Source: Rhodobacter capsulatus SB 1003 (GTDB lineage: Bacteria; Pseudomonadota; Alphaproteobacteria; Rhodobacterales; Rhodobacteraceae). From it: DNA of 32,000 nucleotides. The notes below the pieces were generated by a model. It had not been told where the DNA came from, searched no databases, and saw only the letters and a list, made by a program, of their open reading frames with translations. This document shows, one piece after another, positions 2,347 through 27,236 of the stretch; the stretch's first letter is position 1; every line of letters begins with the position of its first letter. The position numbers and the translations under genes were made by a program. The stretch lies in contig NC_014034.1 in the NCBI RefSeq assembly GCF_000021865.1, positions 2,790,001-2,822,000 of the forward strand, given 5' to 3'.

Positions 2347-3053
2347 CAGCTCTTCGGCCGCAGCACGCAGGTGGCGCGGCGCTTGCCGGTGGGGCGGAAG
2401 TAATCCGCGACAAAACGCCGCTTGTTCGGCCGCACGTCGGACCAATCCACCCAGTCGGTCCGGTAGCCCAGCACATCCGCCATCGCCTCGAGCGCGCCAA
2501 GGCTCGGAATGCCGATCAGCGCCTTTTCCTGCCCCGCGACCTGCGCCAGCGCGTTCAGATCCTTGCTGGGATCCTCGCGCACCAGATCGATGACCTGCCC
2601 CGGCCGCTGCGAGAATTCGCTGTCGAGCAGCACCAGCCGCGGCTGGAACCGCGTCACCAGCTGCAGCAGCCGGAAATGGTCCATGATGTGGTAAAAGATG
2701 CCCAGCACGCCGATCACGTCATAGCGCGCGCCCGCGGCCAGATCGGCCTCCATGCCGTCGAAAATGTCGCCGCAGCGCAGCGTGACCCGGGCGGCGGCTT
2801 CGTCTTGCGGAAATTCGGCGAAGCGCTCGATCAGATGCGGTCGGCCCTCGATCCCCACCACCTCGGCCGCCCCCGCCGCGGCAAAGGCATAGGACCAGCG
2901 CCCGTCATGCGCCGCCAGATCCAGAACCCGCGCCCCCGCCAGATCGGCGGCAATCGGCGCGATCAGCTTGCGATGGCGCTGATTGAGCCGCCCGATCGCG
3001 TAATCATCGCTTTCATACCGCGCGACCGATCGCAAAAAATCGAAAAATCCCAT
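2346..3053 (-). CDS. Class I SAM-dependent methyltransferase (substrate unknown)
   Basis: Rossmann-type SAM motif VLDLAAHDGRWSYAFAAAGAAEVVGIEGR. The ATG at 3053 (MGFFDFLRS...) is preferred. The track start at 3077 is a TTG, so the start is uncertain. Confidence 0.8.
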   Translation of the reverse strand: MGFFDFLRSVARYESDDYAIGRLNQRHRKLIAPIAADLAGARVLDLAAHDGRWSYAFAAAGAAEVVGIEGRPHLIERFAEFPQDEAAARVTLRCGDIFDGMEADLAAGARYDVIGVLGIFYHIMDHFRLLQLVTRFQPRLVLLDSEFSQRPGQVIDLVREDPSKDLNALAQVAGQEKALIGIPSLGALEAMADVLGYRTDWVDWSDVRPNKRRFVADYFRPTGKRRATCVLRPKS

Positions 3054-3117
3054 GGCATTGCCGCGCTTTCGTGTCAAACTCGGGAAAGTCTATGGATCGG
3101 GGTGATGGTTGGCAACA

Positions 3118-3756
3118 ATGACGGCAGGGCTTAGTCCGGAATTACTGCTTTCGGCCTATGCGCAGGGCATTTTCCCGATGGCAAGCGCCAGAGACGCGGC
3201 GGATCTGCATTGGTTCGAACCGCGGCTGCGCGGCGTGGTTCCCTTGCAGAATTTCCACATCTCGCGGTCCCTTGCCCGGGTCATCACCCGCGAGACTTAT
3301 CAAATTCGAACAAACACCGCGTTTCGGGCCGTGGTCGAAGGCTGCGCCGACCGGCCCGAGACCTGGATCAACGCGGCGCTGTTCCGCCTCTATGACGCCC
3401 TGCATGAGCTCGGCGCCGCCCATGCGGTCGAGGTCTGGCAGGGCCCGGATCTGGTGGGGGGGATCTTCGGGGTGACGCTGGGGGGGGCGTTCTTTGGCGA
3501 AAGCATGTTCTCGCGCGCGCCGAATGCGTCGAAAGTGGCGATGGCCTATACGGTCGACCGGCTGATCCGCGGCGGTTTCAGCCTCTTCGACACGCAATAT
3601 CTGACGCCGCATCTGCAAAGTCTGGGCGGGGTCGAGATCCCCCGGATCGAATATCGCAGGCGCCTGCGGGTGGCGCTGGGGCAGAGCGCGGACTTCACCG
3701 CCCCGCCAGCCGCAACGGCTCAGTCGATCTTGCAGCGCAGAACCCAGACGTCGTAG
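3118..3756 (+). CDS. aat: Leucyl/phenylalanyl-tRNA--protein transferase
   Basis: LLSAYAQGIFPMA...LHWFEPRLRGVVPLQNFHISRSL...GESMFS...FDTQYLTPHLQSLGG is the typical L/F-transferase signature. ATG at 3118; the track start at 3109 is TTG. Confidence 0.9.
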   Translation: MTAGLSPELLLSAYAQGIFPMASARDAADLHWFEPRLRGVVPLQNFHISRSLARVITRETYQIRTNTAFRAVVEGCADRPETWINAALFRLYDALHELGAAHAVEVWQGPDLVGGIFGVTLGGAFFGESMFSRAPNASKVAMAYTVDRLIRGGFSLFDTQYLTPHLQSLGGVEIPRIEYRRRLRVALGQSADFTAPPAATAQSILQRRTQTS

Positions 3757-4088
3757 CGCTGATGATCCAGCGCCGAAAGCGCCGGGTTCTGCGCGATCAT
3801 CCAGCCGCGAAACACCTCGCGGCCGATCGCGGTATCGGTGATTTCCAGAAAGGCATAGGCGTTCGAGGCCGGGTCATCGGCCGGATAGCGGCAATCGGTC
3901 AGCCGCACCGAAAGCGAGCCATAGTCAAGGCTTTGCCCGACCGACAGCGGCAGGTCGGTCGCCGCCCCGGCGATCTTGTCGAGCCCGCGCAGGGTGGCGC
4001 CGGGGGCCTCGGCCAGGCCCTCGGGGGCCTCCTGCGCGCCCGCGGCCCCGGCCGTCAGCAGAACCGCGACCAGCGCCGCGCGAATCAT
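3720..4088 (-). CDS. DUF2155 domain-containing periplasmic protein
   Basis: 122 aa with signal peptide MIRAALVAVLLTAGAAGAQE. LRGLDKIAGAATDLPLSVGQS...FLEI...WM core is typical of DUF2155. The start overlaps the mlaD stop (ATGA at 4085-4088). Confidence 0.8.
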   Translation of the reverse strand: MIRAALVAVLLTAGAAGAQEAPEGLAEAPGATLRGLDKIAGAATDLPLSVGQSLDYGSLSVRLTDCRYPADDPASNAYAFLEITDTAIGREVFRGWMIAQNPALSALDHQRYDVWVLRCKID

Positions 4089-4558
4089 GGCGCCGCCCCC
4101 TCGGGGGCTTTCTCGCCATCCTTGGCACCGGCGAATTTCATCATCAGACCCAACGCCGAGACCGCGCCCTGGGTATCGACGATCTCTTCGCCCGGGCCCA
4201 GATTGACCGGGCTGCCGCCGGGCAGGATCTCGACGAAGGCGCCGCCCAGAAGCCCCTCGGTCGCGATCAGGATCTGGCTGTCATCGGGAATGTCGACGCC
4301 CGGTTTCATCGCCACCGTGGTATCGGCAAAAAACGTCTGCGGGTTCAAAGCGATATCGGTGACCGAGCCGACCTTGACCCCGGCCATCCGCACATCGGTG
4401 CCGACGGTGATCCCCTCGACCGAGCGGAACGAGGCTTTCAGCGGATAGCCGCTAGCCGCGGTGCCGAAGCTGTGCCCCTGCCCCGCCCACAGAAAAAATC
4501 CGACCGCGACGGCCAGAACGGCCGCCCCGGTAAGCACTTCGACGCGATTTTCACTCAT
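4085..4558 (-). CDS. mlaD: MlaD-family (MCE domain) outer-membrane lipid asymmetry maintenance protein
   Basis: MSENRVEVLTGAAVLAVAVGFFLWAG N-terminal anchor, followed by an MCE domain (YPLKASFRSVEGITVGTDVRMAGVKVGSV). ATG at 4556-4558. The 299-aa track ORF is an upstream open-frame extension across the neighbouring gene. Confidence 0.85.
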   Translation of the reverse strand: MSENRVEVLTGAAVLAVAVGFFLWAGQGHSFGTAASGYPLKASFRSVEGITVGTDVRMAGVKVGSVTDIALNPQTFFADTTVAMKPGVDIPDDSQILIATEGLLGGAFVEILPGGSPVNLGPGEEIVDTQGAVSALGLMMKFAGAKDGEKAPEGAAP

Positions 4559-4602
4559 GATTTCCAGCCGGTTGCACGGAAGGACGGGGGATGCGGGCGC
4601 GG

Positions 4603-4977
4603 TTACTCCGGCTGCCAGGCATCGTAATCGCTGCGGGCCGCGGGCTCGGCCCGACGCAGCGAGCCCGGCGGCACGAAAGCGGTGGCCAGGCCGGTCTGAT
4701 TCTGCTGATGCGGCAGTTCCCAGGGCTTGTGATCCAGCGGCGCCCGGGTCGGCGGCTCGTTCCAGGTGAAATGGATCCAGCCGTGCCAATCGGGGGGGAT
4801 GCGGCTGGCCTGCACTTCGCCGTTGTAGATCACCCAGCGCCGTTTGCCATCCTTGCTTTGGTAGTAGCAATTGCCCTCGGCATCCTCGCCGACCTTCACC
4901 CCGTGACGCGCGGTGAAGATCTGGGTGCCGAGAGTCTGGCTGTTCCACCACGTCAGCAGGCGCAGCAGGAATTTCAT
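4603..4977 (-). CDS. NADH:ubiquinone oxidoreductase subunit NDUFA12-like protein
   Basis: [76 protein letters not shown] is the characteristic NDUFA12/B17.2 family sequence. Confidence 0.9.
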
Positions 4978-5057
4978 ATCTCACCTCCGCATCTTTGGCC
5001 CCGTTATAGCGGCAGGGCCACCAAGGTCCAGTGTTTTGCGGACCCGTTCAGCACAAA

Positions 5058-5075
5058 GGGCGGGTTTCCCCGCCC
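5058..5075 (-). terminator. Rho-independent terminator downstream of clpX
   Basis: gggcggg (5058-5064), loop tttc, cccgccc (5069-5075). On the minus strand the hairpin is followed by CTTTGTG. It lies about 25 nt after the clpX stop (5100-5102). Confidence 0.6.
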
Positions 5076-5099
5076 CTTCCGTTTCACGACGACCGGGGC

Positions 5100-6374
5100 T
5101 CAGCCAGCGGTCTTCGGTTCCTTTTTGCCCGAGGTCTCGGCGTAGATCAGCAAGGGCTTGGCGCCATTGGCCATTTCCACCGCCTCGTCATTCACCACCA
5201 CCTCGCGCACGCCTTCCATGCCCGGCAGTTCGAACATCGTGTCAAGCAGGATGTCCTCCATGATCGAGCGCAGGCCGCGCGCGCCGGTCTTGCGCTTGAT
5301 CGCGCGGGCGGCAATCGCCTTCATCGCATCGGGGGTGAAGGTCAGCTTCACGCCCTCGATCTCGAATAGCCGCTGGTATTGCTTGACCAGGGCGTTCTTC
5401 GGCTCGGTCAGGATCGTCACCAGCGCGGCTTCGTCCAGATCTTCCAGCGTCGCGATCACCGGCAGACGGCCGACGAATTCCGGGATCAGACCGAATTTCA
5501 GCAGATCTTCCGGCTCGAGTTCCTTGAACAGCTCGCCCGCGCCCCGCGATTCCGGGTCCTTCACATCGGCGCCAAAGCCGATCGCCGAACCCTTGCCGCG
5601 CTGCGCGATGATTCGATCCAGCCCCGCAAAGGCGCCGCCACAGATGAACAGGATGTTCGTCGTGTCCACCTGCAGGAATTCCTGCTGCGGATGCTTGCGC
5701 CCGCCCTGCGGCGGAACGCTGGCCACGGTGCCTTCCATGATCTTCAAAAGCGCCTGCTGCACCCCCTCGCCCGAGACATCGCGGGTGATCGAGGGGTTGT
5801 CCGACTTGCGGGTGATCTTGTCGACTTCGTCGATGTAGACGATGCCGCGCTGCGCCCGTTCGACGTTATATTCGCTGGCCTGCAGAAGCTTCAGGATGAT
5901 GTTTTCGACATCCTCGCCGACGTAACCGGCCTCGGTCAGCGTCGTCGCATCGGCCATGGTGAAGGGCACGTCCAGAATCCGCGCCAGCGTCTGGGCCAAG
6001 AGCGTCTTGCCGCAGCCGGTCGGACCGATCAGCAGGATGTTCGACTTCGCCAGTTCCACATCCTGTTTCGAGCCGTGGTTCAGACGCTTGTAATGGTTGT
6101 GCACCGCAACCGAGAGCACGCGCTTGGCATGCATCTGCCCGATCACGTAATCATCCAGCACCTTGCAGATGTCGCGCGGCGTCGGCACGCCATCCGTCGC
6201 CTTGAGACCGGTGGTCTTGGTCTCCTCGCGGATGATGTCCATGCACAACTCGACGCATTCATCACAGATGAACACGGTCGGACCCGCGATCAGCTTGCGC
6301 ACCTCGTGCTGGCTCTTGCCGCAGAACGAACAGTAGAGGGTGTTCTTGCTGTCGGAGCCGGAATTGTTCGCCAT
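5100..6374 (-). CDS. clpX: ATP-dependent Clp protease ATP-binding subunit ClpX
   Basis: N-terminal zinc-binding CSFCGK...CDECVELC. Walker [13 protein letters not shown] pore-2/ClpP-docking loop. ATG at 6374 (MANNSG...) has GAGG 6 nt upstream. The alternative ATG at 6380 abuts the SD sequence. Confidence 0.97.
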
Positions 6375-6410
6375 CGTCATCCTCGAATGGCCCGACCCGG
6401 GCCTTTGGGG

Positions 6411-6438
6411 GCTGTCCTGGGCCGAAGTCTAGGACAGC
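6411..6438 (-). other. 8-bp stem hairpin in the clpP-clpX intergenic region (possible attenuator or processing site)
   Basis: gctgtcct (6411-6418) pairs with aggacagc (6431-6438) around a 12-nt loop. A second 6-bp hairpin is ccgctc (6466-6471) / gagcgg (6479-6484), just after the clpP stop. Confidence 0.3.
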
Positions 6439-6495
6439 ACCACGTTCTTCTCAATCGCAAATTCCCCGCTCCGGTTAAGAGCGGTCATCGATTTG

Positions 6496-7125
6496 TCATT
6501 TTCCGCCGTCGAGGCTCGGCCGCGCCGAAAGAATCTCGTCGAGATGGCCCCATTCCAGCGCCTCCTCGGGCGACATGAAGCGGTCGCGTTCCAGCGCCTC
6601 GGCCACTTCCTCGAGCGAACGGCCGGTGTGGCGGACGTAGATCTCGTAAAGCCGCTGCCGGATCTTCTCGGTCTCGCGGGCGTGGATCATGATGTCCGTC
6701 GCCTGACCTTGGAACCCGCCCGAGGGCTGGTGCACCATGATGCGCGAATTCGGCAGCGAGAAGCGCATGCCCTTTTCGCCCGCACAGGCGATCACCGAGC
6801 CCATCGAGGCCGCCTGCCCGATCACCAGCGTCGAAACCTTCGGCCGGATGTATTGCATGGTGTCGTAGATCGCGAGGCCCGAGGTGACGACACCGCCGGG
6901 GCTGTTGATATACATGGAAATTTCCTTCGAGGGATTCTCGGCCTCGAGGAACAGCAGCTGGGCGCAGATCAGGCTCGACATGCCGTCATGGAACGGCCCG
7001 GCCAGAAAGATGATCCGCTCCTTGAGCAGACGGGAATAGATGTCATAGGCCCGCTCGCCGCGCGAGGTCTGCTCGACCACCATCGGCACCAGCGTATTCA
7101 TGTAAAGGTCGACCGGGTCTTTCAT
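6496..7125 (-). CDS. clpP: ATP-dependent Clp protease proteolytic subunit ClpP
   Basis: [41 protein letters not shown]. Catalytic GQAASMGS and MVHQPSGG motifs. ATG at 7123-7125 with GAGGAAAGG upstream. The track start at 7179 adds 18 aa. Confidence 0.97.
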
Positions 7126-7332
7126 TCGCTGCCTTTCCTCGTGATGTCCGCCAAGCCTTAGCGCGCGTCTCTTACCCAAGTCTTAGTGTCGCGCGGCCCC
7201 CCCTGCAAGGGCAGCGACTTAAAAGAGAGGAGTTGGAATGATTCTTGGCGATTAATCGGGCGGAAAGAGTTGCGCGCTAGGCTGTGCGACAAATGTTCTC
7301 GGGGGAACCGTCCCCGCAACCGGAGCCAGCCC

Positions 7333-7902
7333 ATGAAATCCAGCGCAGCGATGCTTGTTCTCGCGCTTCTCGCCCTGCCCGCGCAGGCCGAGGATATTTC
7401 ACCGCAAGTCAAGGAAATCGTGGAAAAAGAGCTGCGCGCCTGGGCCGCGGATCCGGCCCTTGTCGCGGCGGTGATCGCCGCGAACGAAGCCCATGCCGCG
7501 CTGAGCCAGCCGCAGATCGAGTCGCTCGACGCCGCCTGGCGGACCGAACTTGAAACCAGCACCCGTCCGACCATCGATCCGATCCTCGCCGCGCCGGAAT
7601 CGCAGGCGCTCAAGGCGAAGATCGAGGCTGGCGGCGGCCGCTTCACCGAGGCTTTCGTCACCGACAGCCACGGGCTGAACGTCGCCCAGGCCGGTCCGAC
7701 CTCGGACTACTGGCAGGGCGACGAGGCGAAATTCCTCGAAACCTTCCCGAAGGGCGCCGAGGCCATCCATGTCGGCGAGGTGGAATTCGACGAATCCTCG
7801 CAAAGCTACTCGGTGCAGGCCTCCTTCACCGTGATCGACCCCGCCAGCAAAGCCCCGATCGGGGCGATGACGGTGGGTCTCAATGCCGAAATGATCCAGT
7901 AA
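7333..7902 (+). CDS. Secreted (periplasmic) PDC/Cache-like sensor-type protein of unknown function, probably co-transcribed with the downstream MCP
   Basis: ATG at 7333 with GGAG at 7322-7325. Sec signal [21 protein letters not shown]. The mature part has an alpha/beta sensor-like pattern ([27 protein letters not shown]...[26 protein letters not shown]). The stop lies 13 nt before the MCP start. The fold assignment is inference. Confidence 0.7.
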
Positions 7903-7915
7903 TCCGGGGTCCGAG

Positions 7916-10558
7916 ATGAGCGCCAAGACGTCCGCTTCCGTCAGCTTCTTCCATTCGAGTTTCTTCCGCGCCACCCTTCTCGTCGCCGCCTCGGTGCTGG
8001 CGGTCGTGGTCTCGATGACGCTTTACAACGTGCACACGACCACCGAGCTGGCGCTGAAACAGCTGCAGCAACAGGCCCAGGGCGCCAGCGGCATCATCGC
8101 CAAGCAGCTGGTCGGGCCGATGCGCTTTTCGGACAAGCTGCAGCTGGGCAAGGCGCTGCAGGACGTCGTGGACGATCCCTCGAACCCCGCCGACATGATG
8201 ATGGCGGTGAACGAAAAGGGCGAAGCGCTGGCCACCTATGCGGCCGAGGGCGCCGACACGGCCGAGCTGACGGCGATGGCGCAGACGCTTGCCGGACAGA
8301 AATCCGTCGTCACCTCGGAAGACGGGCTGACCATCGCCACCCCGGTCACCGGCGCGACCAGCGGCACCGTCCTTGGCTATGTGCTGTCGCACTGGTCCGA
8401 GGAACAGACCGATGCCGCGATCGCCTCGGCCACCCGCACCAGCCTGATCGTCTCGGGCCTGATCCTGATCGCGGCGATGCTGCTCACCAGCTTCTTCTTC
8501 CGCGCGATGATCTCGCTGCGGCTGGGCCGGATCAACACCGCGATGTCGGCGATCGCCGACGGTGCCCTGGCCACCGAGGTGCCCTATACCGGGACCAAGG
8601 ACGAAATCGGCCATATCGCGAAATCCCTTGAAGCCTTCCGGCAATCGCTGGAGCAGGCCGAAGCCACGAACCGCGTCGCGCTGATGCGGGGCACGGCGCT
8701 CGCCTCGGCCTCGACCGCGATCATGCTGACCGACACCGCGCATGTCATCACCTGGGCGAACGAGGCGATGGTGAAGCTGATGCGGGTGCATGCCGCGGCG
8801 ATCCGGGCGCGCAATCCGGATTTCGACCCGGACAACATGATCGGCTATCGCGCCGACCGCATCGTCGAGGGCGGCACCGAGATCGCGGGCGAGATGGACG
8901 CCGGGAGCCGGGCCTCGCTCCGCATCGAGCAGGATCTGGCCTCGGGAACCCTGGTGGTGGAAGCGAACCCGGTGATGACGCCGGATGGCACCAAGATCGG
9001 CCATGTCGCCGAATGGCATGACATCACCGAGGCGCGGCGCAATATCGCGATCACCGAGGCGATCGATGCGACGCAGCTGCGGGTGGAATTCACCCCGGAT
9101 GGCCGGATGAGCGCGGCGAACGTGGCGATGTGCGTGATCTCGCAGCGCGACGAGTCGCAGCTGATCGGCATGGATTTCTCGCGGCTGGTGCGGGTGGCCG
9201 CGACCGGGGAAATGGCGTTCGAGGCGATTGCGCGCGGCGAAAACGTGATCGGGCGGCTTCTCCTGTCGATCGACGGCCAGGAATTGCTGCTCAACGGCGC
9301 GATGACGCCGGTGCGCGACCGCAAGGGCACGATCCGGCGCGTCGTCGCCATCGGCACCGACATGTCGGAGATCGAATCCCGCGAGGCGCACGCCCGGATC
9401 GAGCGCGAACGCGCCGCCGCCGAACAGCGTCAGGTGGTCGACCAGCTGCGCGACGCGCTGCGGCATCTGGCCGAGGGCGATCTGACGCAGGCGATCCGCG
9501 AGCCCTTCCCGGGCGATTACGAGACGCTGCGGGTCGATTACAACGACGCCACGGCGAAGCTGCGCGAAGCGATGGCGATGGTGCTGGAAAACTCGAGCCT
9601 GATCCGCACCGAATCGGGCAGCATCTCGCGCGCGGCCGAGGATCTCTCGCGCCGGACCGAGCAACAGGCCGCGACGCTCGAGGAAACCGCCGCGGCGCTG
9701 AACGAGCTGACCGCCTCGGTGAAATCGGCGGCCGATCGCACCTTGAAGGCCAATGACATGGTGGCTCTCGCCCGGCGCAACACCGAATCGAGCGGCCAGG
9801 TCGTGCGCGAGGCCGTGCAGGCGATGGGCGAGATTTCCGAAAGCTCGAACAAGATTTCGCGCATCACCTCGGTGATCGAGGAAATCTCCTTCCAGACCAA
9901 CCTTCTTGCGCTGAACGCGGGGGTGGAAGCCGCCCGTGCGGGCGAAGCCGGGCGCGGCTTTGCCGTCGTCGCCTCGGAAGTGCGGGCGCTGGCGCAACGG
10001 TCCTCGGAAGCCGCGCGCGAAATCGCCGGTCTGATCTCGGATTCGGCCGGTCAGGTGAAACGCGGCGTGGAACTGGTCGGACAGGCGGGCAGCGCGCTGG
10101 ACGGCATCCAAGGCTCTGTCGCCGAAATCGTCACCTTCATGTCGGACATCACCGCCTCGACCACCGAGCAATCGGCCGGCCTGAGCGAGGTCAACACCGC
10201 GATCCTGCAACTGGATCAGGTCACCCAGCACAATGCCGCGATGTTCGAGGAAACCTCGGCCGCCAGCCAGTCCCTGGCCCGCGAGGCGGACGGGCTGAAC
10301 GACACGATGAGCCGGTTCCGCCTTGGCACGCAGCAGGGCACGGGGGCTGCCGCAAGCAACTTCCGGTCGACCCGCCCGGTGGCAGCGCCGGTCGCGCCCG
10401 CCCCCGCCGCCGAGCCGAAGGCGCCCACGCCGATCCGTGCGGCCACCCCGGCCCCGGCTCCGGCTCCGGCCCCGGCTCCGGCGCCGCGCGCCAGTGCCCG
10501 GGCCTCGAATCTGGCGGTCAAACAGGCGCCTGCCGAGGACAACTGGGAAGATTTCTGA
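7916..10558 (+). CDS. Methyl-accepting chemotaxis protein (two TM segments, periplasmic domain, HAMP, two PAS domains, MA signalling domain, C-terminal NWEDF pentapeptide)
   Basis: TM1 is [17 protein letters not shown] and TM2 is [22 protein letters not shown]-like blocks ([18 protein letters not shown]...; [17 protein letters not shown]...). The highly conserved MA hairpin is [50 protein letters not shown]. The protein ends ...[10 protein letters not shown]. Confidence 0.95.
10448..10486 (+). repeat. Imperfect hexanucleotide (ccg-gcn) tandem repeat encoding a (Pro-Ala) run in the MCP C-terminal linker
   Basis: ccg gcc ccg gct ccg gct ccg gcc ccg gct ccg gcg ccg translates to [13 protein letters not shown] in the MCP reading frame. 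Confidence 0.85.
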
Positions 10559-10564
10559 TCCGGC

Positions 10565-10921
10565 TCAACTGCCGCGATAGGTCGAATAGCCGTAAGGCGA
10601 CAGCAGCAGGGGCACATGGTAATGTGCCCCTGCGTCATTCATCCCGAAGCGGATCGGAATTTCGTCCAGAAACAGCGGCTCTGCCGCGCCCTGTCCGTTC
10701 CGGCGCAGATAGGCGCCGACGTGGAAGACCAGTTCGTAACAGCCGGTCGCAAAATCCGCCGCCGCCAGGATCGGCGCATCGGTCCGGCCATCGGCATTGG
10801 TGCGGCTTCGGGCCAGCGGATGGCGCCCCGCGGCGTCGATGCGGTTCAGCTCGATCTCGATGCCCTCCGCCGGGCAGCCCCGCGCGGTATCGAGCACATG
10901 GGTCGTCAGATATCCGGCCAT
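10565..10921 (-). CDS. uraH: 5-hydroxyisourate hydrolase (transthyretin-like)
   Basis: [20 protein letters not shown]...[18 protein letters not shown] with the diagnostic C-terminal YRGS tetrapeptide. ATG at 10919-10921. The track ORF start at 11077 is an upstream extension. Confidence 0.93.
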
Positions 10922-11054
10922 AGCCCCCCTCTTCCGCCGTGCCCCCGCTCGCCGCGATGTCGCACGGCGAGATGCGAAACGGATGATTTCCTTTTCGAAA
11001 AAAACCTGAAACTCTCTGTCATGCAATCCCCCTGCAGCCGGACCGGAGGCTAAG

Positions 11055-12470
11055 ATGACCCGATATCCCAGAGACATGCGCGGCTATGGCGGCTCTCCGC
11101 CCGATGCGCGCTGGCCCGGGAAAGCCCGGATCGCGATTTCTCTGGTGCTGAACTACGAAGAGGGCGGCGAGAACTGCATCCTGCATGGCGATGCCGCCTC
11201 GGAAGCCTTCTTGTCCGACATCGCGGGGGCCGCCCAATGGCCCGGCCAGCGCCACTGGAACATGGAATCGATCTATGAATACGGCGCCCGCGCCGGGTTC
11301 TGGCGGCTGCATCGGCTGTTCACCGGGATGGCGCTGCCGGTCACCATCTATGGCGTCGCCACCGCGCTGGCCCGCAGCCCCGAACAGGTCGCGGCGATGA
11401 AGGCGGCGGGCTGGGAAATCGCCAGCCACGGGCTGAAATGGGTCGAGCACCGCGACATGCCCGAAGAGGAGGAACGCCGCCAGATCGCCGAGGCGATCCG
11501 GCTGCATGCCGAAGTCGTGGGCGAACGCCCCCGCGGCTGGTATACCGGGCGCTGTTCGGCCAATACCGTGCGCCTGACCGCGGAAGAAGGCGGTTTCGAC
11601 TGGATTTCAGACACTTACGACGACGACCTGCCGTATTGGCGGCGCTTCGGAAGCCACGAGCAGCTGATCATCCCCTACACGCTCGAAGCCAATGACATGC
11701 GCTTCGCCACCGCGCCGGGCTATATCGAGGGCGAGCAGTTCTTCACCTATCTGAAGGACAGCTTCGACACGCTTTACGCCGAGGGCACGGCCGGGACGGC
11801 AAAGATGTTTTCGATCGGCCTGCATTGCCGCCTGATCGGGCGGCCGGGCAAGATCGCGGGGCTCAAGCGCTTTCTGGACTATGCCCGCAGCCATGAGGGG
11901 GTCTGGTTTGCCACCCGCGGCCAGATCGCGGCGCATTGGGCCGCCACGCATCCGCCGCAAGACTTTGACCGGCCAAGCGAAATGACGCGAAGCGACTTCG
12001 TGGCCGCGTTTGGCGCGATTTACGAACACAGCCCCTGGATCGCCGAAAAGGCCCATGCGCTGGAGCTTGGCCCCGCGCATGACTGCGCCGAGGGCATCGC
12101 CAGCGCGCTGGCGCGGGTGTTCCGTTCGGCCCCGGAAACGCAGCGGCTGCGCGTGCTCAAGGCCCATCCCGATCTGGCCGGAAAACTTGCCCGGGCGCGG
12201 CGGCTGACGGCGGAAAGCACCGCCGAACAGGCCTCGGCCGGGCTCGATGCGCTGACCGATGCCGAACGGGTGGCATTTGAGGAGCTCAACCACGATTACA
12301 CCGAAAAATTCGGCTTCCCCTTCATCATCGCGGTGAAGGATCACACGAAACCGGCGATCCTTGCGGCCTTCCGCCGCCGGATCGCCAACGACCGCGCCAC
12401 CGAATTCGCCGAGGCCTGCCATCAGGTCGAACGCATCGCCTGGCACCGACTGAAGGACCTGCTGCCATGA
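11055..12470 (+). CDS. puuE: Fusion protein: PuuE-type allantoinase (polysaccharide-deacetylase fold) plus OHCU decarboxylase
   Basis: N-terminal about 305 aa: [36 protein letters not shown]...[11 protein letters not shown] (PuuE pattern). C-terminal part from about nt 11980: [21 protein letters not shown]...[10 protein letters not shown]...FPFIIAVK (OHCU decarboxylase / UraD pattern). GGAGG lies 5 nt upstream of the ATG. Confidence 0.88.
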
Positions 12471-22524: not shown

Positions 22525-22611
22525 GGCGGCTTCTTCGTTATGGATACGGGGCAGCAAACAGCGCCGCCACGGTCGCTGTCAAGCCCGATGCCCTCACCAT
22601 TCGGAGAGACA

Positions 22612-23091
22612 ATGTCCGAAACGCGAAAAGATCCCGTGCAACCCGCCGATGACGAGGCCCGCCAGCTGGCGCGGGAGCTGATCACCGCCGCCCGCTTTGC
22701 CGCGCTGGGGGTGATCGACCCCGAGACCGGCTTTCCCTTCGTCAGCCGCATCGCGCTTGGCACGACGCCCGAGGGCGGTCTGTGCACGCTGGTCTCGGGG
22801 CTTTCGGCGCATTCGCGCGCGCTGCGGGCCGATCCGCGGGTGTCGCTGCTCGTGGGCGAGCCCGGGACAAAGGGGGATCCGCTGGCCCATCCGCGGCTCA
22901 CGCTTCTGGCCACGGCCAGCCCCCTGCCCCGGACCGCGGCATTGCAGGCGCGCTGGCAGACCGATCACCCCAAGGCGAAGCTTTACATCGATCTGCCGGA
23001 TTTCTTCTTTGTCGGCTTTTCCTTGCGCGCGGGGGCGCTGAACGGCGGCTTCGGCCGCGCCTTTCGCCTGGCCCCCGCGGATCTGACCTGA
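22612..23091 (+). CDS. Pyridoxamine-5'-phosphate-oxidase-like FMN-binding split-barrel protein (HugZ/heme-utilisation-like family)
   Basis: ARQLARELITAARFAALGVIDPETGFPFVSRIALGTTPEGGLCTLVSGLSAHSRALRADPRVSLLVGE is the typical PNPOx-like N-terminus. ATG 22612 has GGAGAG at 22603-22608. It is the only credible part of the 751-aa track ORF that is antisense to SulP. Confidence 0.75.
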   Translation: MSETRKDPVQPADDEARQLARELITAARFAALGVIDPETGFPFVSRIALGTTPEGGLCTLVSGLSAHSRALRADPRVSLLVGEPGTKGDPLAHPRLTLLATASPLPRTAALQARWQTDHPKAKLYIDLPDFFFVGFSLRAGALNGGFGRAFRLAPADLT

Positions 23092-23100
23092 GGCCCCGCC

Positions 23101-25392
23101 TCAGTTCGGCGTGTCGATGCGGATCACCACGTTGATCTTGCCCTTGGCGGCCTCGGGCCAGGTCACGTTGACCAGATTTTTCCCCGCGCCCTGCTCGGCG
23201 GTGATGAAGGGCATGGCCGTGACCCGGGCGCCCGCGGCATTGGTGATCGCCCCCACCGCCACCACGCTTTCGACATGCCGCGCCCAGCCGCCAAAGGGCA
23301 GATAGGCCGCGGCATCGGCGCTCCAGACCGATTGCGCGCTCGACTGCGTCACCTGCACCATCACCGGGTTCACCGTCATCTGGCTCACCGCGTTGAAAAT
23401 GTTGTTCTGGAACGTGATGTTGCGCATCCGCGCATAGTCGAGATCGGCAAAGCTCGTGTCCACCTTCTCGATCCGGTTGATGTTGCCGTTCAGCGCCTTG
23501 AAGACGTTGTTCGACACCGTCAGCCCCTGGATGTAATGGCCGCTGCCATAGGGCTTGATCGAGAGCCAGGTCACCCAGGCCGCGACATCATCCATGATGC
23601 AGGTGTTGCCGGTCATCGTCAGCCCGCCAAAGGAATATTGCGTGCCGAGGTTCGGATCGGGCGAATATTCGTTCGTCCATTCGATGAAGTTGTTGTCGAT
23701 GTAATTGCCGGTCACCGTCGATTGCACGTTGGGCGTGGTGAAGACCAGCCCCGGCACCCGCGGCCCGTCCACCTGCCCGTCGCCCTGGAACCAGTGGTTG
23801 CCCACGATCACATGGCCGGTGCCGTCCAGCACCATCGTCGTGCCGAAGCGCACGAAACGCGAATCGCGGATCTTGGTGTCATTCGCATTGACATTGACAC
23901 AGACCGAGGTCCGGTTCTCGACATTGACATCCAGCTCGTTCGACAGGAAATCGCAGCGGTCGATGTAGAGGTTCTGGCACCCCCGCCCGATCGAGGTGAT
24001 GGCGCGGTCCTTCGGCTTCACCATCCAGCAATCGCGCAGCCCGAACGTGTCGCCCTCGCGCGCCAGCAGGATGCCGCTTGCCACCCCGCCCAGCAGGAAT
24101 TCGACATTGTCGATGGTGAAGCGGGCCAGATAGTCGAAGCCGGAAAAATCAAGCGCGTATTTGTAGCGCCGGAACGTGTAGCTGCGCGTGCCCGAACCGC
24201 CGTAAAGCGGCTGCGACAGCGTCAGCTTGGCCGCGCCGGGATCGACCGCCAGCACATAGACCTCGCGGCCGACGCCGGTGCCGCTCACCCGCGCGCCGAC
24301 CGGGATGTTGGCGATATTCGTCACATTGCTCAGCGTCGTCGATTGCGACGTGGAATAGGTCGCGTTCGAGGTGACGGTGGTGGTGCTCCAGGCCGTGTTG
24401 TCGCTGACCGAGATCTGCCCGTTCGCCAGCACCCGCCGGTTCGACCAGCTCGAAGTATCGGGCACCGCCGCCTTGACATCGATCGGCCCGGTCAGATCGA
24501 CCCGCCGCCCGCACAGATCGAAGATGTTGTTGTCGGTATAGGACAAAAGCGCCTGCAACCCCTTCCTCAGCGCCAGTTCCTCGTCGCCGAAGGCCTTCGC
24601 ATAGGTCGGAAAGTCGAAATTCTTCTGCAGCACCAGCCGCGCCGCGGTCGGCATGATCAGCGTGCCGGTGAAGCGGATCGGGCTGTCGATCGAGAGCGAG
24701 GACCCGATGCGGTAGCTGCCCTCCGGCACGATCAGGCTGCGCCCGTCGGCGGCGGCATCGGCGGCCAGAAAGGCGGCGCGGTCATCGGTGGTGCCGTCGC
24801 CCTTGGCGCCATAGTCGCGCACATCGACCACATCCATCATGTCGCGCAGGAAAGCTTCGGTGATATCCTCGATGACGATATCCTCGATCCGCACCACGCC
24901 CCCGGTCTGCCCGGTCAGATCCAGCCCGAAATGGCCATAGACAGGCACCGTGCCCCAGGCCATGTCGACACCCGCGCGCGTGCCCGAGCCGACGATCGCC
25001 TGCACCGTCACCACCTTGCCATAGGTGGTCAGCGTGACCGGGCTGGCCACTTCGACCAGCCCGTTCACATGCGCATTCGCCGCGCTCATCGCATAGCCCG
25101 CGATCCGCACCGCGCAGAAATTGCCCGAGACCGCCTTCACCTTGGCGGTGATGCGCAGATAGACGCCGGGCAGGATCGGCGTCTGCCCCATCCAGCGCAG
25201 CTTCTGCGTGCTCTGGGTCTTGGTCATCTCCAGACAGGTGCCGAAATCGGCATCCGCCGGCACCAGCGCCGCATTCACGGCCCCCGCATAGGTGGCCGAT
25301 CCCGCCGTGCCATTCTCGCTCGACCATTGGCCCAGCCCCAGTTCGAAAGCAGAGGGGGTCAGGTTCACCCCATCGGTGATCGCGATGTTCAT
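23101..25392 (-). CDS. Orphan tailspike/tail-fibre-like protein: N-terminal jelly-roll (CBM-like) domain plus right-handed beta-helix (pectate-lyase-3-type) domain, no signal peptide
   Basis: ATG at 25390-25392 has AAGGAG 6 nt upstream, giving 763 aa. The N-terminus is MNIAITDGVNLTPSAFELGLGQWSSENG... (CBM4/9-like N-L-x-P-x-x-F-E-x-G-x-x-x-W). The VRDYGAKGDGTTDD motif (DYGAKGDG at nt 24793-24816) is typical of Pectate_lyase_3 / phage tailspike N-caps. Many N/G-rich beta-helix rungs are present (TGNYIDNNFIEW, TMTGNTCIMDD, VSNNVFKALNGNINRIE, ITFQNNIFNAV). There is no Sec/Tat leader. Confidence 0.8.
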   Translation of the reverse strand: MNIAITDGVNLTPSAFELGLGQWSSENGTAGSATYAGAVNAALVPADADFGTCLEMTKTQSTQKLRWMGQTPILPGVYLRITAKVKAVSGNFCAVRIAGYAMSAANAHVNGLVEVASPVTLTTYGKVVTVQAIVGSGTRAGVDMAWGTVPVYGHFGLDLTGQTGGVVRIEDIVIEDITEAFLRDMMDVVDVRDYGAKGDGTTDDRAAFLAADAAADGRSLIVPEGSYRIGSSLSIDSPIRFTGTLIMPTAARLVLQKNFDFPTYAKAFGDEELALRKGLQALLSYTDNNIFDLCGRRVDLTGPIDVKAAVPDTSSWSNRRVLANGQISVSDNTAWSTTTVTSNATYSTSQSTTLSNVTNIANIPVGARVSGTGVGREVYVLAVDPGAAKLTLSQPLYGGSGTRSYTFRRYKYALDFSGFDYLARFTIDNVEFLLGGVASGILLAREGDTFGLRDCWMVKPKDRAITSIGRGCQNLYIDRCDFLSNELDVNVENRTSVCVNVNANDTKIRDSRFVRFGTTMVLDGTGHVIVGNHWFQGDGQVDGPRVPGLVFTTPNVQSTVTGNYIDNNFIEWTNEYSPDPNLGTQYSFGGLTMTGNTCIMDDVAAWVTWLSIKPYGSGHYIQGLTVSNNVFKALNGNINRIEKVDTSFADLDYARMRNITFQNNIFNAVSQMTVNPVMVQVTQSSAQSVWSADAAAYLPFGGWARHVESVVAVGAITNAAGARVTAMPFITAEQGAGKNLVNVTWPEAAKGKINVVIRIDTPN

Positions 25393-25596
25393 CCGAAACT
25401 CCTTCGTGTTCGGCCCGCCCCAAGATGCGGCACGCAAAGGCCGGGCGCGGCGCAAACACGCCACGCGACCGCCACCGGCGCTCCGCAGGATCGGGGATTT
25501 CACCGGGCCATCACGCCCCGGCCAGACCAGACCTAGCCGTGAAAATTGAAGAAGATCTGACGACAGCGCGCGCTGCCCGGCCCCCGGACAACGCGC

Positions 25597-25611
25597 GCAA
25601 AAGTCTTTTGC
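25597..25611. promoter_or_regulatory. Perfect 7-1-7 palindrome GCAAAAG-T-CTTTTGC between lysK and the tailspike-like gene
   Basis: Read directly from the sequence. It lies 21 nt downstream of the lysK stop (25632-25634) and about 205 nt upstream of ATG 25392. A 1-nt centre makes a protein operator more plausible than a stable terminator. Confidence 0.3.
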
Positions 25612-25631
25612 ATCAAGGGCTCAGCCCGTGA

Positions 25632-27236
25632 TCAGGCCTTGATCAGCCCGCCCGCCAGCGCGGTTTCCATCAGCGCGATGGTTTCGCTGACGCCATAAAG
25701 CGCGATGAACCCGCCAAAGCGCGGCCCCTGGCTTTGGCCCAAGAGCACCTCGTAAAGCGCGGTGAACCAGTCTCGCAGCGGCTCGAACCCGTGTTCGGTG
25801 CCGACGGCGAAGACGATCGTCTGCAGCCCCTCGGACGGGTCCTCGAATTGCAGATGCAGGTCGGTCGCGGGCAGCGCCTTCAGCCGTGCCAACAGATCCT
25901 CCATCGCCGCGCGTTCCTTGTCGGAGGGCAGCCGGAAGGTCCGGGTCGGCGCGACGAAATCATGGAAGTAGCGCACCGCAAAGCCCGCCGCCGCGTCCAG
26001 ATCGGGGTGGGTTTCGGGCGTCGCCTCGGGCGCATAGCGCTTGATGAAGCCCCAAAGCCCGGCCTTGTCGCTTGCCCCCGCCACCGAGGCGAGGTTCAGC
26101 AGCATCGCAAAGGGCACCACCAGGTTCGACTCGGGCGGCTGGCCGCCGTGAATGTGCCAGACCGGGTTGTCGATCTGCTTCTCGACCGGCTGCGTCGGAT
26201 AGGCGCGCAGCTGCTGATGGTATTCATCCACCGCTTTCGGGATCACATCCCACCACAGCCGCTTCGCCGTCTTCGGCTTTTGATACATGAAATAGGACAG
26301 GCTTTCGGTCGCCGCATAGCTCAGCCATTCGTCGATCGTCAGCCCGTTGCCCTTCGACTTGGAAATCTTCTGCCCCTGATCATCCAGGAACAGCTCATAG
26401 GTGAAATGCTCGGGCTTCCTGCCGCCCAAGACCTCGCAAATGCCGTCATAAATCGGCGTGTTGGTCGAATGGTCCTTGCCATACATCTCGAAATCGACAT
26501 CCAGCGCCGCCCAGCGCATGCCGAAATCGGGCTTCCACTGCAGCTTCACCTTGCCGCCCGTCACCGGCAGCGTCCATTCGCGGCCGTCCTCGTCGTCAAA
26601 GGTGATCAGCCCGTTCTTCGCATCGACATGCTTCATCGGCACGTAAAGCACGCGGCCGGTTTCCGGATGGATCGGCAGGAAGCAGGAATAGGTCTGCTGA
26701 CGTTCTTCGCGCAACGATTTCAGCATGATCGCCATGATCGCGTCATAGCGTTCGGCGCAAAGCATCAGCATCTCGTCGAACTTGCCGGACTTGTAATAAT
26801 CCGTCGCGCTGGCGAATTCATATTCGAACCCGAACGTGTCCAGAAACCGGCGCAGCATGGCGTTGTTGTGATTGCCGAAGCTGTCGAATTCGCCGAACGG
26901 ATCGGGCACGGCGGTCAGCGGCTTTTGGATATTCGCGTAAAGCAGCTCCTGCTGCGGCACGTTTTCGGGCACCTTGCGCATGCCGTCCATGTCGTCGGAA
27001 AAGCACAAAAGCCGCGTCGGAATGTCCGAGATGATTTCAAACGCGCGGCGGATCATCGTCGTGCGCGCGACCTCGCCAAAGGTGCCGATATGCGGCAGCC
27101 CACTCGGGCCATAGCCGGTCTCGAACAGCACATGGCCCTTTTTCGGCGGCGCCTTTTCGTAGCGTTTGAGCACCCGACGCGCTTCCTCGAAAGGCCAGGC
27201 TTTGGAGTTCATCGCAGCGTCGCGCAGGGTGGTCAT
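25632..27236 (-). CDS. lysK: Lysine--tRNA ligase, class I
   Basis: [15 protein letters not shown]...[31 protein letters not shown] (class-I HIGH-type motif) and KISKSKGNG (KMSKS-like). ATG at 27234-27236 has GAGGA about 7 nt upstream. The track start at 27305 adds 23 aa. Confidence 0.95.

Follow-up and report, generated by a model that had tools for sequence, protein, structure and literature searches.

An orphan beta-helix gene beside lysS in Rhodobacter capsulatus SB 1003 is very probably tspA, the tailspike gene of the gene transfer agent RcGTA

Identity of the gene

The stand-alone gene analyzed here is almost certainly tspA (rcc02623), a gene of the host chromosome that forms part of the dispersed 'genome' of the R. 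capsulatus gene transfer agent (RcGTA); this is the best explanation of the evidence as a whole. That the product is a GTA tailspike is already known, having been described in a preprint of July 2026 (bioRxiv 10.64898/2026.07.19.739414). What is added beyond that preprint is limited to a comparative promoter observation and to independent confirmation of the gene's conservation, its synteny and its absence from phages. The functional evidence for TspA comes from this one preprint, which is not yet peer reviewed (Bardy et al., 20 July 2026). The window, the whole stretch of DNA that was analyzed, is 32,000 nucleotides long. A first-pass annotation made from its sequence had proposed a dispersed GTA-linked tailspike or adsorption module, or else a co-opted exopolysaccharide depolymerase, set free by lysis and not by secretion, and the match to rcc02623 together with published co-regulation supports that proposal.

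The product encoded in the window and R. capsulatus ADE86353.1 share 100% identity. A literature search for papers citing this accession, made to map its locus tag, found none; the identity with rcc02623 rests on sequence features. Among the residues named in the preprint, 20 of 22 are found at the stated positions, including the C-terminal Asn763. The figure-legend labels M687 and D675 disagree with the window sequence, whereas the Met678 of the preprint's text agrees with it, and the two labels therefore look like labelling slips. The domain limits of an AlphaFold2 (AF2) model of the 763-aa product coincide with the cryo-EM domains of the preprint, which also places lysS (rcc02624) next to rcc02623 (bioRxiv 10.64898/2026.07.19.739414). 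Organism, length, residues, domain plan and lysS neighbor all agree between the protein described here and the preprint's Rcc02623, and nothing of substance differs.

The gene and its setting

The tspA coding sequence occupies 23101..25392 on the minus strand (763 codons plus a stop at 23101-23103, from the ORF list and its translation), within a listed ORF of 23101..25503 (-). A Shine-Dalgarno sequence, AAGGAG (25399..25404, minus strand), is followed after a 6-nt spacer by the ATG at 25392. Met1-Asn2 is invariant at the N-terminus of 35 homologue sequences aligned with the product, and because the homologues share this beginning, the start at 25392 is correct. A 753-aa ORF on the other strand, 23275..25536 (+), is a shadow frame of the GC-rich sequence; it is the minus-strand product for which there are thousands of homologues, one Pfam match and a confident AF2 model (pLDDT 88.3).

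Immediately adjoining tspA on its upstream side is the gene for a class-I LysRS (lysS/lysK; PF01921). Downstream lie a convergent PNPOx/CREG-like gene, then SulP, then acetyl-CoA synthetase, and the remaining genes of the window are housekeeping genes (accC, aat, clpX, an MCP, purine catabolism, pyrD and dacB). Of the ORFs that were scanned, none has an integrase, capsid or terminase domain, and ARAGORN found no tRNA genes in the window. The GC content of tspA (0.62-0.66) resembles that of its surroundings. Three statements of the first-pass annotation are borne out by these results: that the AAGGAG sequence fixes the start at 25392, that the gene is an orphan between lysK and a PNPOx-like gene, and that it does not lie within a prophage. 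A scan of 22900-25750 found no sigma-70 consensus promoter sites. Two terminator-like hairpins are not above chance and fall within coding sequence.

Domain architecture

The N-terminal domain (residues 1-180; 24853..25392, minus strand; limits from the preprint) is a CBM-like beta-sandwich. AF2 models residues 1-176 in this way, all-beta across 41-176, and Foldseek matches the domain to the CBM16 structures 2zey and 3oeb. Beyond this domain the model continues as a right-handed beta-helix, interrupted by an inserted barrel and ending in a C-terminal barrel; this remainder matches beta-helix proteins. The first part of the helix (residues 181-336; 24385..24852, minus strand) includes the cap DYGAKGDGTTDD, which accounts for the PF12708 (Pect-lyase_RHGA_epim) match, confined to residues 189-245 (32.4 bits, cut-off 27). 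A PDB sequence profile search with TspA likewise gave matches to the cap only, and these do not discriminate the enzyme class. AF2 strands at 338-415 then break the helix to form the insertion beta-barrel (residues 337-411; 24160..24384, minus strand; limits from the preprint). The second part of the helix (residues 412-674; 23371..24159, minus strand) carries both inter- and intra-subunit cleft residues, and a C-terminal beta-barrel (residues 675-763; 23104..23370, minus strand; AF2 strands 677-758) completes the protein. The structure prediction is of the AF2 monomer; the trimer and its attachment to the baseplate are taken from the cryo-EM and cryo-ET of the preprint.

Foldseek gives E values of 1e-8 to 1e-6 to the Sf6 and HK620 tailspikes, with further fold matches to Klebsiella K64-1 and K1 lyase and to many BFVD tail spikes. 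Neither Lys nor Arg occurs in the first 30 residues, MNIAITDGVNLTPSAFELGLGQWSSENGTA, and this segment lacks a hydrophobic core. The architecture proposed at first pass, a CBM- or jelly-roll-like N-terminus joined to a beta-helix with the DYGAKGDGTTDD cap, is upheld by AF2, Foldseek and PF12708, and the N-terminal sequence bears out the accompanying statement that the protein lacks a Sec or Tat leader.

Attachment, activity and phenotype

The preprint reports the structure of TspA at 2.0 A as a homotrimer, and its cryo-EM and cryo-ET place six loosely bound trimers on the RcGTA baseplate, in contact with the tail tube, the distal tail protein and the megatron (bioRxiv 10.64898/2026.07.19.739414). 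Loop 26-36 of the N-terminal domain touches the megatron, and the domain shifts when substrate binds. The C-terminal barrel is reported to be the trimerization domain and to contact the tail tube, a 1-674 truncation being monomeric. According to the same source, TspA is a Ca-dependent, biofilm-degrading enzyme in which His533 and Asp566 are essential, since substituting either abolishes activity. The protein is also reported to be abundant in GTA supernatants (bioRxiv 10.64898/2026.07.19.739414).

Disruption of rcc02623 in 2016 indicated that the gene is not required for RcGTA gene transfer activity (Hynes et al. 2016, PMC5026251). The preprint reports that TspA raises gene transfer under anaerobic conditions and that deleting tspA lowers the number of transfer events by 70%, an effect seen only if the recipients had been grown anaerobically (bioRxiv 10.64898/2026.07.19.739414). 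The knockout is thus not transfer-null, and its phenotype is conditional.

The published work describes the following course of events. GafA activates tspA along with the GTA structural cluster, and the leaderless protein folds in the cytoplasm and forms homotrimers, six of which dock weakly on the GTA baseplate. TspA would leave with the particles on lysis of the producer cell, part of it presumably being released free besides the particle-bound fraction. According to the preprint, the cleft formed by Asp505 of one subunit and His533/Asp566 of the other degrades the biofilm matrix when the protein is Ca-bound and closed, leading to more gene transfer into matrix-embedded recipients. The cleavage chemistry and the exact glycan substrate we can only infer.

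Regulation and the promoter

Four transcriptome comparisons yielded 26 ORFs that are co-regulated with RcGTA, and rcc02623 is one of them (Hynes et al. 2016, PMC5026251, Table 1). The preprint, which draws on EMSA, RT-qPCR and proteomics, reports about 1000-fold, GafA-dependent induction of tspA in a GTA overproducer and binding of GafA to the tspA promoter (bioRxiv 10.64898/2026.07.19.739414). The dependence of tspA expression on the GTA regulators GafA, Rcc00280 (and CtrA) is taken from the literature (PMC5026251; bioRxiv 10.64898/2026.07.19.739414).

The equivalent of PtspA#2, a fragment of 50 bp that GafA shifts in the EMSA of the preprint, lies at 25443..25492 on the minus strand (-100..-51 from the start codon). 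Alignment found no counterpart of this segment upstream of the R. lacus and R. maris orthologues, and in a five-species alignment the part of the promoter that is conserved lies outside the GafA-shifted fragment. The best-conserved upstream block, GCAGCGCGCGC ... TCAGATCTTCTTCAATTTTCACGGCTAGGTCTGG, is at 25527..25576 on the minus strand (-184..-135; five-species alignment and motif search). It occupies the position of a TTAAC-N6-TTGATAC element of other Rhodobacterales, the TTAA core of which has been lost in R. capsulatus. This CtrA-box-like motif is found upstream of most orthologues and is degenerate in the window; TTAAC/GTTAA occurs upstream of 66 of 83 orthologues, compared to 12.8 +/- 3.1 in shuffles. 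On sequence grounds, the motif of the orthologues is consistent with control by GTA regulators, and we infer a role for the conserved block itself. The main text of PMC9638019 gives no GafA consensus sequence. The available text of the preprint discusses neither a CtrA-type box nor the block at -184..-135.

Could the protein instead be an ordinary cellular polysaccharide hydrolase, lyase or epimerase, acting on the envelope of its own cell or on a glycan outside it, with no relation to the GTA? The database names 'glycosyl hydrolase family 28-related' and 'GH55' might suggest so, and in fold the protein matches GH110, GH87, GH28 and AlgE epimerases just as strongly as it matches tailspikes. 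Vertical inheritance at a housekeeping locus, slow evolution and the negative search for phage homologues (see below) are also what one would expect of such an enzyme. However, the protein has no export signal, GH55, GH28 and epimerase sequences match only the generic cap, and the GH28 catalytic domain PF00295 gives no match to TspA at E<=1. In the four transcriptome contrasts the gene goes together with RcGTA in its regulation (PMC5026251), and the preprint describes binding by GafA, a high level of the protein in GTA lysates and its density on the baseplate in cryo-EM. The published co-regulation and structure have already largely refuted this explanation, and we consider it very unlikely.

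Conservation and locus of the orthologues, and the search for phage homologues

The inter-subunit cleft residues Asp505, His533 and Asp566 are all present in the window protein, as are the intra-subunit cleft residues Glu571, Glu575 and Asp645 of the second helix part and the inter-subunit Ca-site residues Glu271/Asp287/Arg297/Asp299 of the first. Across the 81 aligned Rhodobacterales orthologues, Asp505, His533, Asp566, Glu377, Glu571, Glu575 and Asp645 are invariant (81/81), and the Ca ligands Glu271, Asp287 and Arg297 are kept in about 80%. Conservation is about equal over all domains, the N-terminal one included, and orthologues are ~753-790 aa long, most of them 760-765. The best 80 genome loci for TspA homologues are all in Rhodobacterales. 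A comparison of synteny across the order, which had been proposed at first pass, showed that orthologues share the locus; of 82 loci, 55 have lysK on the upstream side and 44 have PNPOx on the downstream side. In one relative (L004), a real prophage lies directly downstream of the tspA orthologue.

Several apparent departures from this pattern were considered. Four shorter sequences (P0145, P0146, P0148 and P0162; ~570-606 aa) suggested a subfamily without the N-terminal domain, which was rejected after a check of P0145 alone; its nearest relatives are 763-aa proteins of Hasllibacter, Gymnodinialimonas and Roseicyclus, and P0145 is therefore probably a truncated metagenomic gene call. A loss of catalytic residues seen in a poorer alignment vanished in a better one for the full-length relatives from these three genera. 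Four sequences of 30-35% identity (P0140, P0141, P0147 and P0152) were rejected as candidates from outside the order, the seeded genome scan having given only Rhodobacterales/Paracoccaceae and broadly labelled MAGs. Three full-length representatives (P0128, P0130 and P0136) have a substituted catalytic triad.

A tblastn search of 50,697 phage genomes found no TspA homologues. In IMG/VR, matches were limited to cap residues 185-254 apart from three contigs with the gene at a prophage boundary, and these contigs were rejected as prophage-boundary artefacts.

An orphan tailspike gene might also be the decaying remnant of a prophage, with no present function. The tailspike-like architecture would fit such an origin, as would the prophage immediately 3' of the L004 orthologue. 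The distribution of the gene argues otherwise: it has kept its full length and its locus in at least 80 Rhodobacterales species, with invariant cleft residues and purifying selection across the order. Neither a dN/dS near 1 nor frequent frameshifts, which would favor a remnant, were seen. The GC content like that of the surroundings, the lack of phage genes and tRNAs in the window and the lack of phage homologues beyond the cap also count against a remnant, which is even less likely than an unrelated cellular enzyme.

Comparison with phage tailspikes and other dispersed GTA genes

TspA has its cap motif and a beta-helix that forms trimers in common with the depolymerases of Sf6/HK620/P22, Klebsiella K64-1/K1 and phi29 gp12. 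The preprint describes an active cleft between subunits, as in Sf6, and the digestion of polysaccharide to reach the cell, as by phage tailspike depolymerases in general. There are also clear differences. The N-terminus of TspA is a CBM-like sandwich, whereas phage tailspikes have a particle-anchoring domain there, and according to the preprint TspA binds the particle weakly and reversibly, unlike phage tailspikes. In addition, tspA is a stable, slowly evolving chromosomal gene, in contrast to the fast-evolving cassette of a phage tailspike.

Together with rcc00171 (tail fibre), ghsA/ghsB (rcc01079/80; head spikes), rcc00555/6 (lysis genes) and gafA (rcc01865), tspA lies outside the 17-gene cluster and is co-regulated with it, and all of the dispersed loci listed alongside tspA aid the particle's recognition of cells (PMC5026251). 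No sequence relationship links tspA to these other loci. The rcc00171 and head spike genes are fast-evolving, with phage or prophage homologues (Hynes et al. 2016, PMC5026251), whereas tspA is conserved throughout the order, has no phage homologues and is non-essential for transfer. The first-pass annotation had named a stand-alone tail-fibre gene among the scattered RcGTA loci; that gene is rcc00171, which encodes a DUF2793 protein at another locus. That TspA is itself the Rcc00171 tail fibre or a paralogue of it is barely credible and the identity is ruled out by domain content and locus: both are GTA-associated host-recognition proteins encoded off the main cluster, but Rcc00171 is a DUF2793 (PF10983) protein encoded downstream of EPS synthesis genes, with rcc00919 as its sole stated paralogue (Hynes 2016), and TspA has no DUF2793 match and adjoins lysK.

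Likeness to cellular enzymes and possible origin

The sandwich-plus-helix plan of TspA is shared with GH87 alpha-1,3-glucanases and GH110 alpha-galactosidases (Foldseek: 7c7d, 6k0m, 5zru, 9beu, 7jw4), a likeness known here from the fold, with sequence identity of about 10-12%. GH28 structures match only the cap, at residues 180-245. In the preprint, HHpred matches residues 37-669 to the S. thermodiastaticus GH87 enzyme (bioRxiv 10.64898/2026.07.19.739414). The GH87 and GH110 enzymes are secreted, unlike TspA, which is a particle-bound trimer without a leader.

A joint reading of the fold and the promoter can be offered tentatively, as one that is possible and on balance rather doubtful. TspA, instead of being a domesticated phage tailspike, may have been a cellular CBM-plus-beta-helix glycanase of the GH87/GH110 plan, recruited to the GTA baseplate by an early Rhodobacterales ancestor, and its gene may have had an ancestral CtrA-type box, the TTAA core of which was lost in the R. 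capsulatus lineage, where GafA is relied on instead. The lack of a phage homologue beyond the cap, the roughly equal conservation of the domains and the fixed housekeeping locus would fit such recruitment of a cellular enzyme. On this reading, the promoter block with the best conservation (-184..-135) falls outside the GafA-binding fragment.

Significance

A prediction of a GTA-linked tailspike or depolymerase, made from sequence with nothing more to go on than architecture, a missing leader and an orphan context, was correct. Gene transfer agents are a model for the cellular domestication of viruses. TspA is a GTA component that is missing from the phage relatives, a releasable depolymerase that clears biofilm matrix on the way to recipient cells, and it is also a potential anti-biofilm enzyme.

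Identity of the gene

The product of the minus-strand gene at 23101-25392 is identical (100%) to R. capsulatus ADE86353.1 and, judged by its translation, this gene is tspA (rcc02623), the founding member of the TspA family. Its product has been described as the tailspike of RcGTA, the R. capsulatus gene transfer agent, in a preprint that is not peer reviewed (Bardy et al. 2026, bioRxiv 10.64898/2026.07.19.739414). The finding is thus already known, with no novelty against the literature. The preprint ends TspA at Asn763, places the gene beside lysS (rcc02624), and divides the protein into domains at residues 1-180, 181-336 plus 412-674, 337-411 and 675-763. The identification follows from the agreement of the named residues, the Asn763 end and the lysS neighbour. 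Twenty of the 22 residues named occur at their stated positions in the window translation: the Ca ligands Glu271, Asp287, Arg297, Asp299, Asp542, Asp602 and Asn635; the cleft residues Glu377, Glu571, Glu575 and Asp645; the inter-subunit cleft residues Asp505, His533 and Asp566; and Met186, Met672, Met678, Tyr697, Glu708 and Asn763. The remaining two labels, M687 and N-D675 (Gln687 and Asn675 in the window), are confined to the legend of Fig. 3 of the preprint, whose text gives Met678 and "1-674", both of which fit.

The mechanically called open reading frame begins at a GTG at 25503. A Shine-Dalgarno sequence, AAGGAG (25399-25404, minus strand), lies six bases 5' of the ATG at 25392, Met1-Asn2 is invariant in 35 homologues, and the published numbering and the window translation both end at Asn763; on these three grounds the ATG is the real start. 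The first-pass annotation had fixed the start of this 763-aa frame from the AAGGAG, and its choice is confirmed by the spacing, the homologue alignment and the published numbering. An antisense frame of 753 aa (23275-25536, plus strand) covers nearly all of tspA, and comparable long shadow frames lie over acs, sulP and lysK; these are artefacts of the codon usage at 66% GC rather than genes.

The RcGTA tail fibre, rcc00171, is a different gene, encoding a DUF2793 protein and adjoining EPS genes; the stand-alone tail-fibre gene mentioned in the first-pass annotation is rcc00171, not tspA. TspA also falls outside GH28, despite the GH28 name in databases.

Fold, trimer and active cleft

The sole Pfam match is PF12708 (residues 189-245, the DYGAKGDGTTDD cap). 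The same stretch gives the PHROGs matches, solely to tail, tailspike and pre-neck-appendage families, and a sequence-profile search of the PDB found no match outside this cap. A confident AlphaFold2 model built on 35 homologues (pLDDT 88.3) contains a beta-sandwich over residues 1-176, then a right-handed beta-helix into which a small barrel is inserted (about 338-415), and a C-terminal barrel (about 677-758). In Foldseek searches of the PDB the model matches GH110 and GH87 enzymes, the Sf6 and HK620 tailspikes, Klebsiella depolymerases and AlgE epimerases, with CBM16 at the N-terminus; many phage tail spikes in BFVD share the fold at 10-14% identity. The architecture predicted from sequence, a CBM/jelly-roll-like N-terminus followed by a cap and beta-helix, is therefore borne out by Pfam, AlphaFold2 and Foldseek. 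By direct reading, residues 1-30 lack Lys, Arg and a hydrophobic core, and hence a Sec or Tat leader, as had also been proposed.

The preprint reports a 2.0 Å cryo-EM structure of a TspA homotrimer that is held by the C-terminal domain and whose closed active state is Ca-dependent. The H533Q and D566N proteins are inactive yet still compete with wild-type TspA, which places the active cleft at the subunit interface, like that of the Sf6 tailspike. Cryo-ET and a 2.7 Å map place six trimers round the baseplate; the interface is weak (ΔG -1.5 kcal/mol), which explains the loss of TspA during purification.

Expression and activity

In each of the four transcriptome contrasts of Hynes et al. 2016 (PMC5026251, Table 1), rcc02623 and rcc02730 were co-regulated with RcGTA; both were dispensable for transfer. 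According to the preprint, the Δrcc00280 overproducer has about 1000-fold more tspA transcript, and transcript levels drop without the GTA regulator GafA, while neighbouring genes do not respond; GafA shifts an upstream fragment at -50 to -100. In GTA supernatants TspA matches the capsid protein in abundance. Transfer falls by 70% when tspA is deleted, though solely for recipients grown anaerobically, which are EPS-rich, and added purified TspA mitigates the drop. At 500 nM, TspA removes 66% of established SB1003 biofilm, and concentrations down to 60 nM almost completely prevent biofilm formation. The authors infer that TspA is released with cell lysis and that a free pool exists.

The first-pass proposal of a GTA-linked tailspike or depolymerase is supported in substance by these published data, in which TspA is trimeric, dependent on GTA regulators and present on particles. 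A knockout phenotype in transfer is likewise published, though as a conditional one.

Distribution and relation to phages

The homologue search found 3863 proteins at E<=1e-3 among 8000 candidates scored, and 142 cluster representatives at E<=1e-30. A genome-locus search seeded also with the most divergent representatives gave more than 551 loci, the best 80 of which all belong to Rhodobacterales/Paracoccaceae. Asp505, His533, Asp566, Glu377, Glu571, Glu575 and Asp645 are invariant in 81/81 aligned orthologues, across which the first Ca site is mostly retained and the second varies. The N-terminal sandwich (mean identity 58%) is at least as conserved as the catalytic helix (50%), unlike the fast-evolving receptor-binding proteins of phages. 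In three divergent full-length representatives (760-763 aa, 39-46% identity) the Asp505/His533/Asp566 triad is substituted, as G/H/D in P0128, G/R/S in P0130 and Y/E/M in P0136; these may be forms that only bind, or may have another active site.

No phage homologue was found at E<=1e-3 by tblastn of 50,697 phage genomes. Of the 80 matches in IMG/VR, 77 are limited to residues of about 156-295, mostly 185-254, and the three longer ones lie at contig edges (L003 and L004, full-length; L005, residues 3-450). Contig L004 (UViG_2617271277_000006) carries at 2398-11321 a genuine prophage with an integrase, a capsid-protease fusion, a portal and a large terminase, about 110 bp 3' of the tspA orthologue and with no tRNA nearby. 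Because the gene abuts this prophage, the match is a boundary artefact, and neighbouring prophage explains why this contig, and also L003 and L005, were filed as viral. The 3' flank of tspA may be an integration site. The tblastn and IMG/VR results reproduce the absence of TspA from phages stated in the preprint. TspA works like phage tailspike depolymerases but, unlike them, has no phage homologue, phage-type anchor domain or prophage context.

Genomic context

The 5' neighbour of tspA is a class-I LysRS gene. On the 3' side a PNPOx/CREG-like gene (rcc02622; 22594-23091, plus strand) converges with it across a 9-nt gap (23092-23100), in which a scan found no terminator-like hairpin. SulP, acetyl-CoA synthetase, TerB, a Cys-rich small protein and DacB are encoded around it, the other genes of the window are housekeeping genes, the window has no tRNA, and the GC content is unremarkable. 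Neighbour annotation thus upholds the original description of an orphan gene in housekeeping DNA, between lysK and a PNPOx-like gene. Among 82 loci, 55 have lysK and 52 have TerB 5' of tspA, and 44 have PNPOx 3' of it. In Thioclava, R. lacus, R. maris and Phaeovulum a CHAD-domain gene on the opposite strand separates lysK from tspA (locus L001 6916-7770, L163 1938-2816, L164 1935-2813, L165 1933-2769); R. capsulatus and Paracoccus lack it, and in these lysK borders tspA directly.

About 17 kb separate tspA from clpX (5100-6380, minus strand), also in the window. Mature RcGTA particles require ClpXP, which degrades CtrA (PMC9638019); the proximity is probably coincidental.

A CtrA-box-like element upstream of tspA orthologues

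Upstream regions came from loci L001, L002 and L083-L166; the 200 nt 5' of 83 tspA orthologues were scanned with dinucleotide shuffles as control. TTAA-N7-T[TCA][AG]A occurs in 29/83 (shuffles 0.8 ± 0.9) and perfect TTAA-N7-TTAA in 6/83 (shuffles 0.1). The CtrA half-site pentamer TTAAC/GTTAA occurs in 66/83 (shuffles 12.8 ± 3.1), and an iterated weight matrix, G-TTAAC-N6-TTGATAC-YTC (that is, TTAA-N7-TTGA), matches above the 95% shuffle level in 74/87 sequences, a circular count, as these sequences also trained the matrix; neither 66/83 nor 74/87 is a probability, since the orthologues share kinship. Across Rhodobacterales the sites lie about 55-190 nt upstream, mostly at about 80-130, with the peak bin at -100 to -81. 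A sigma-70 consensus scan found no sites.

The R. capsulatus block at the corresponding position is TTCTTCAATTTTCACGGCTAGGTCT (25529-25553, minus strand, -161 to -137), which has lost the TTAA core; TTCAA or TTCAG replaces it here and in close relatives. Together with GCAGCGCGCGC (25566-25576) it forms the sole well-conserved intergenic part among R. capsulatus, R. lacus, R. maris and Phaeovulum. The conserved upstream block (25527-25576, minus strand, -184 to -135) lies partly outside the 150 bp tested by EMSA in the preprint, and the segment shifted by GafA (25443-25492, -51 to -100) falls opposite a gap in the R. lacus and R. maris sequences. CtrA is not discussed for the tspA promoter in the preprint; rcc02623 does respond to loss of ctrA (PMC5026251). 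From comparison of upstream regions we infer a functional role for the CtrA-box-like element and the conserved block, and this comparative promoter observation is a small addition beyond the preprint.
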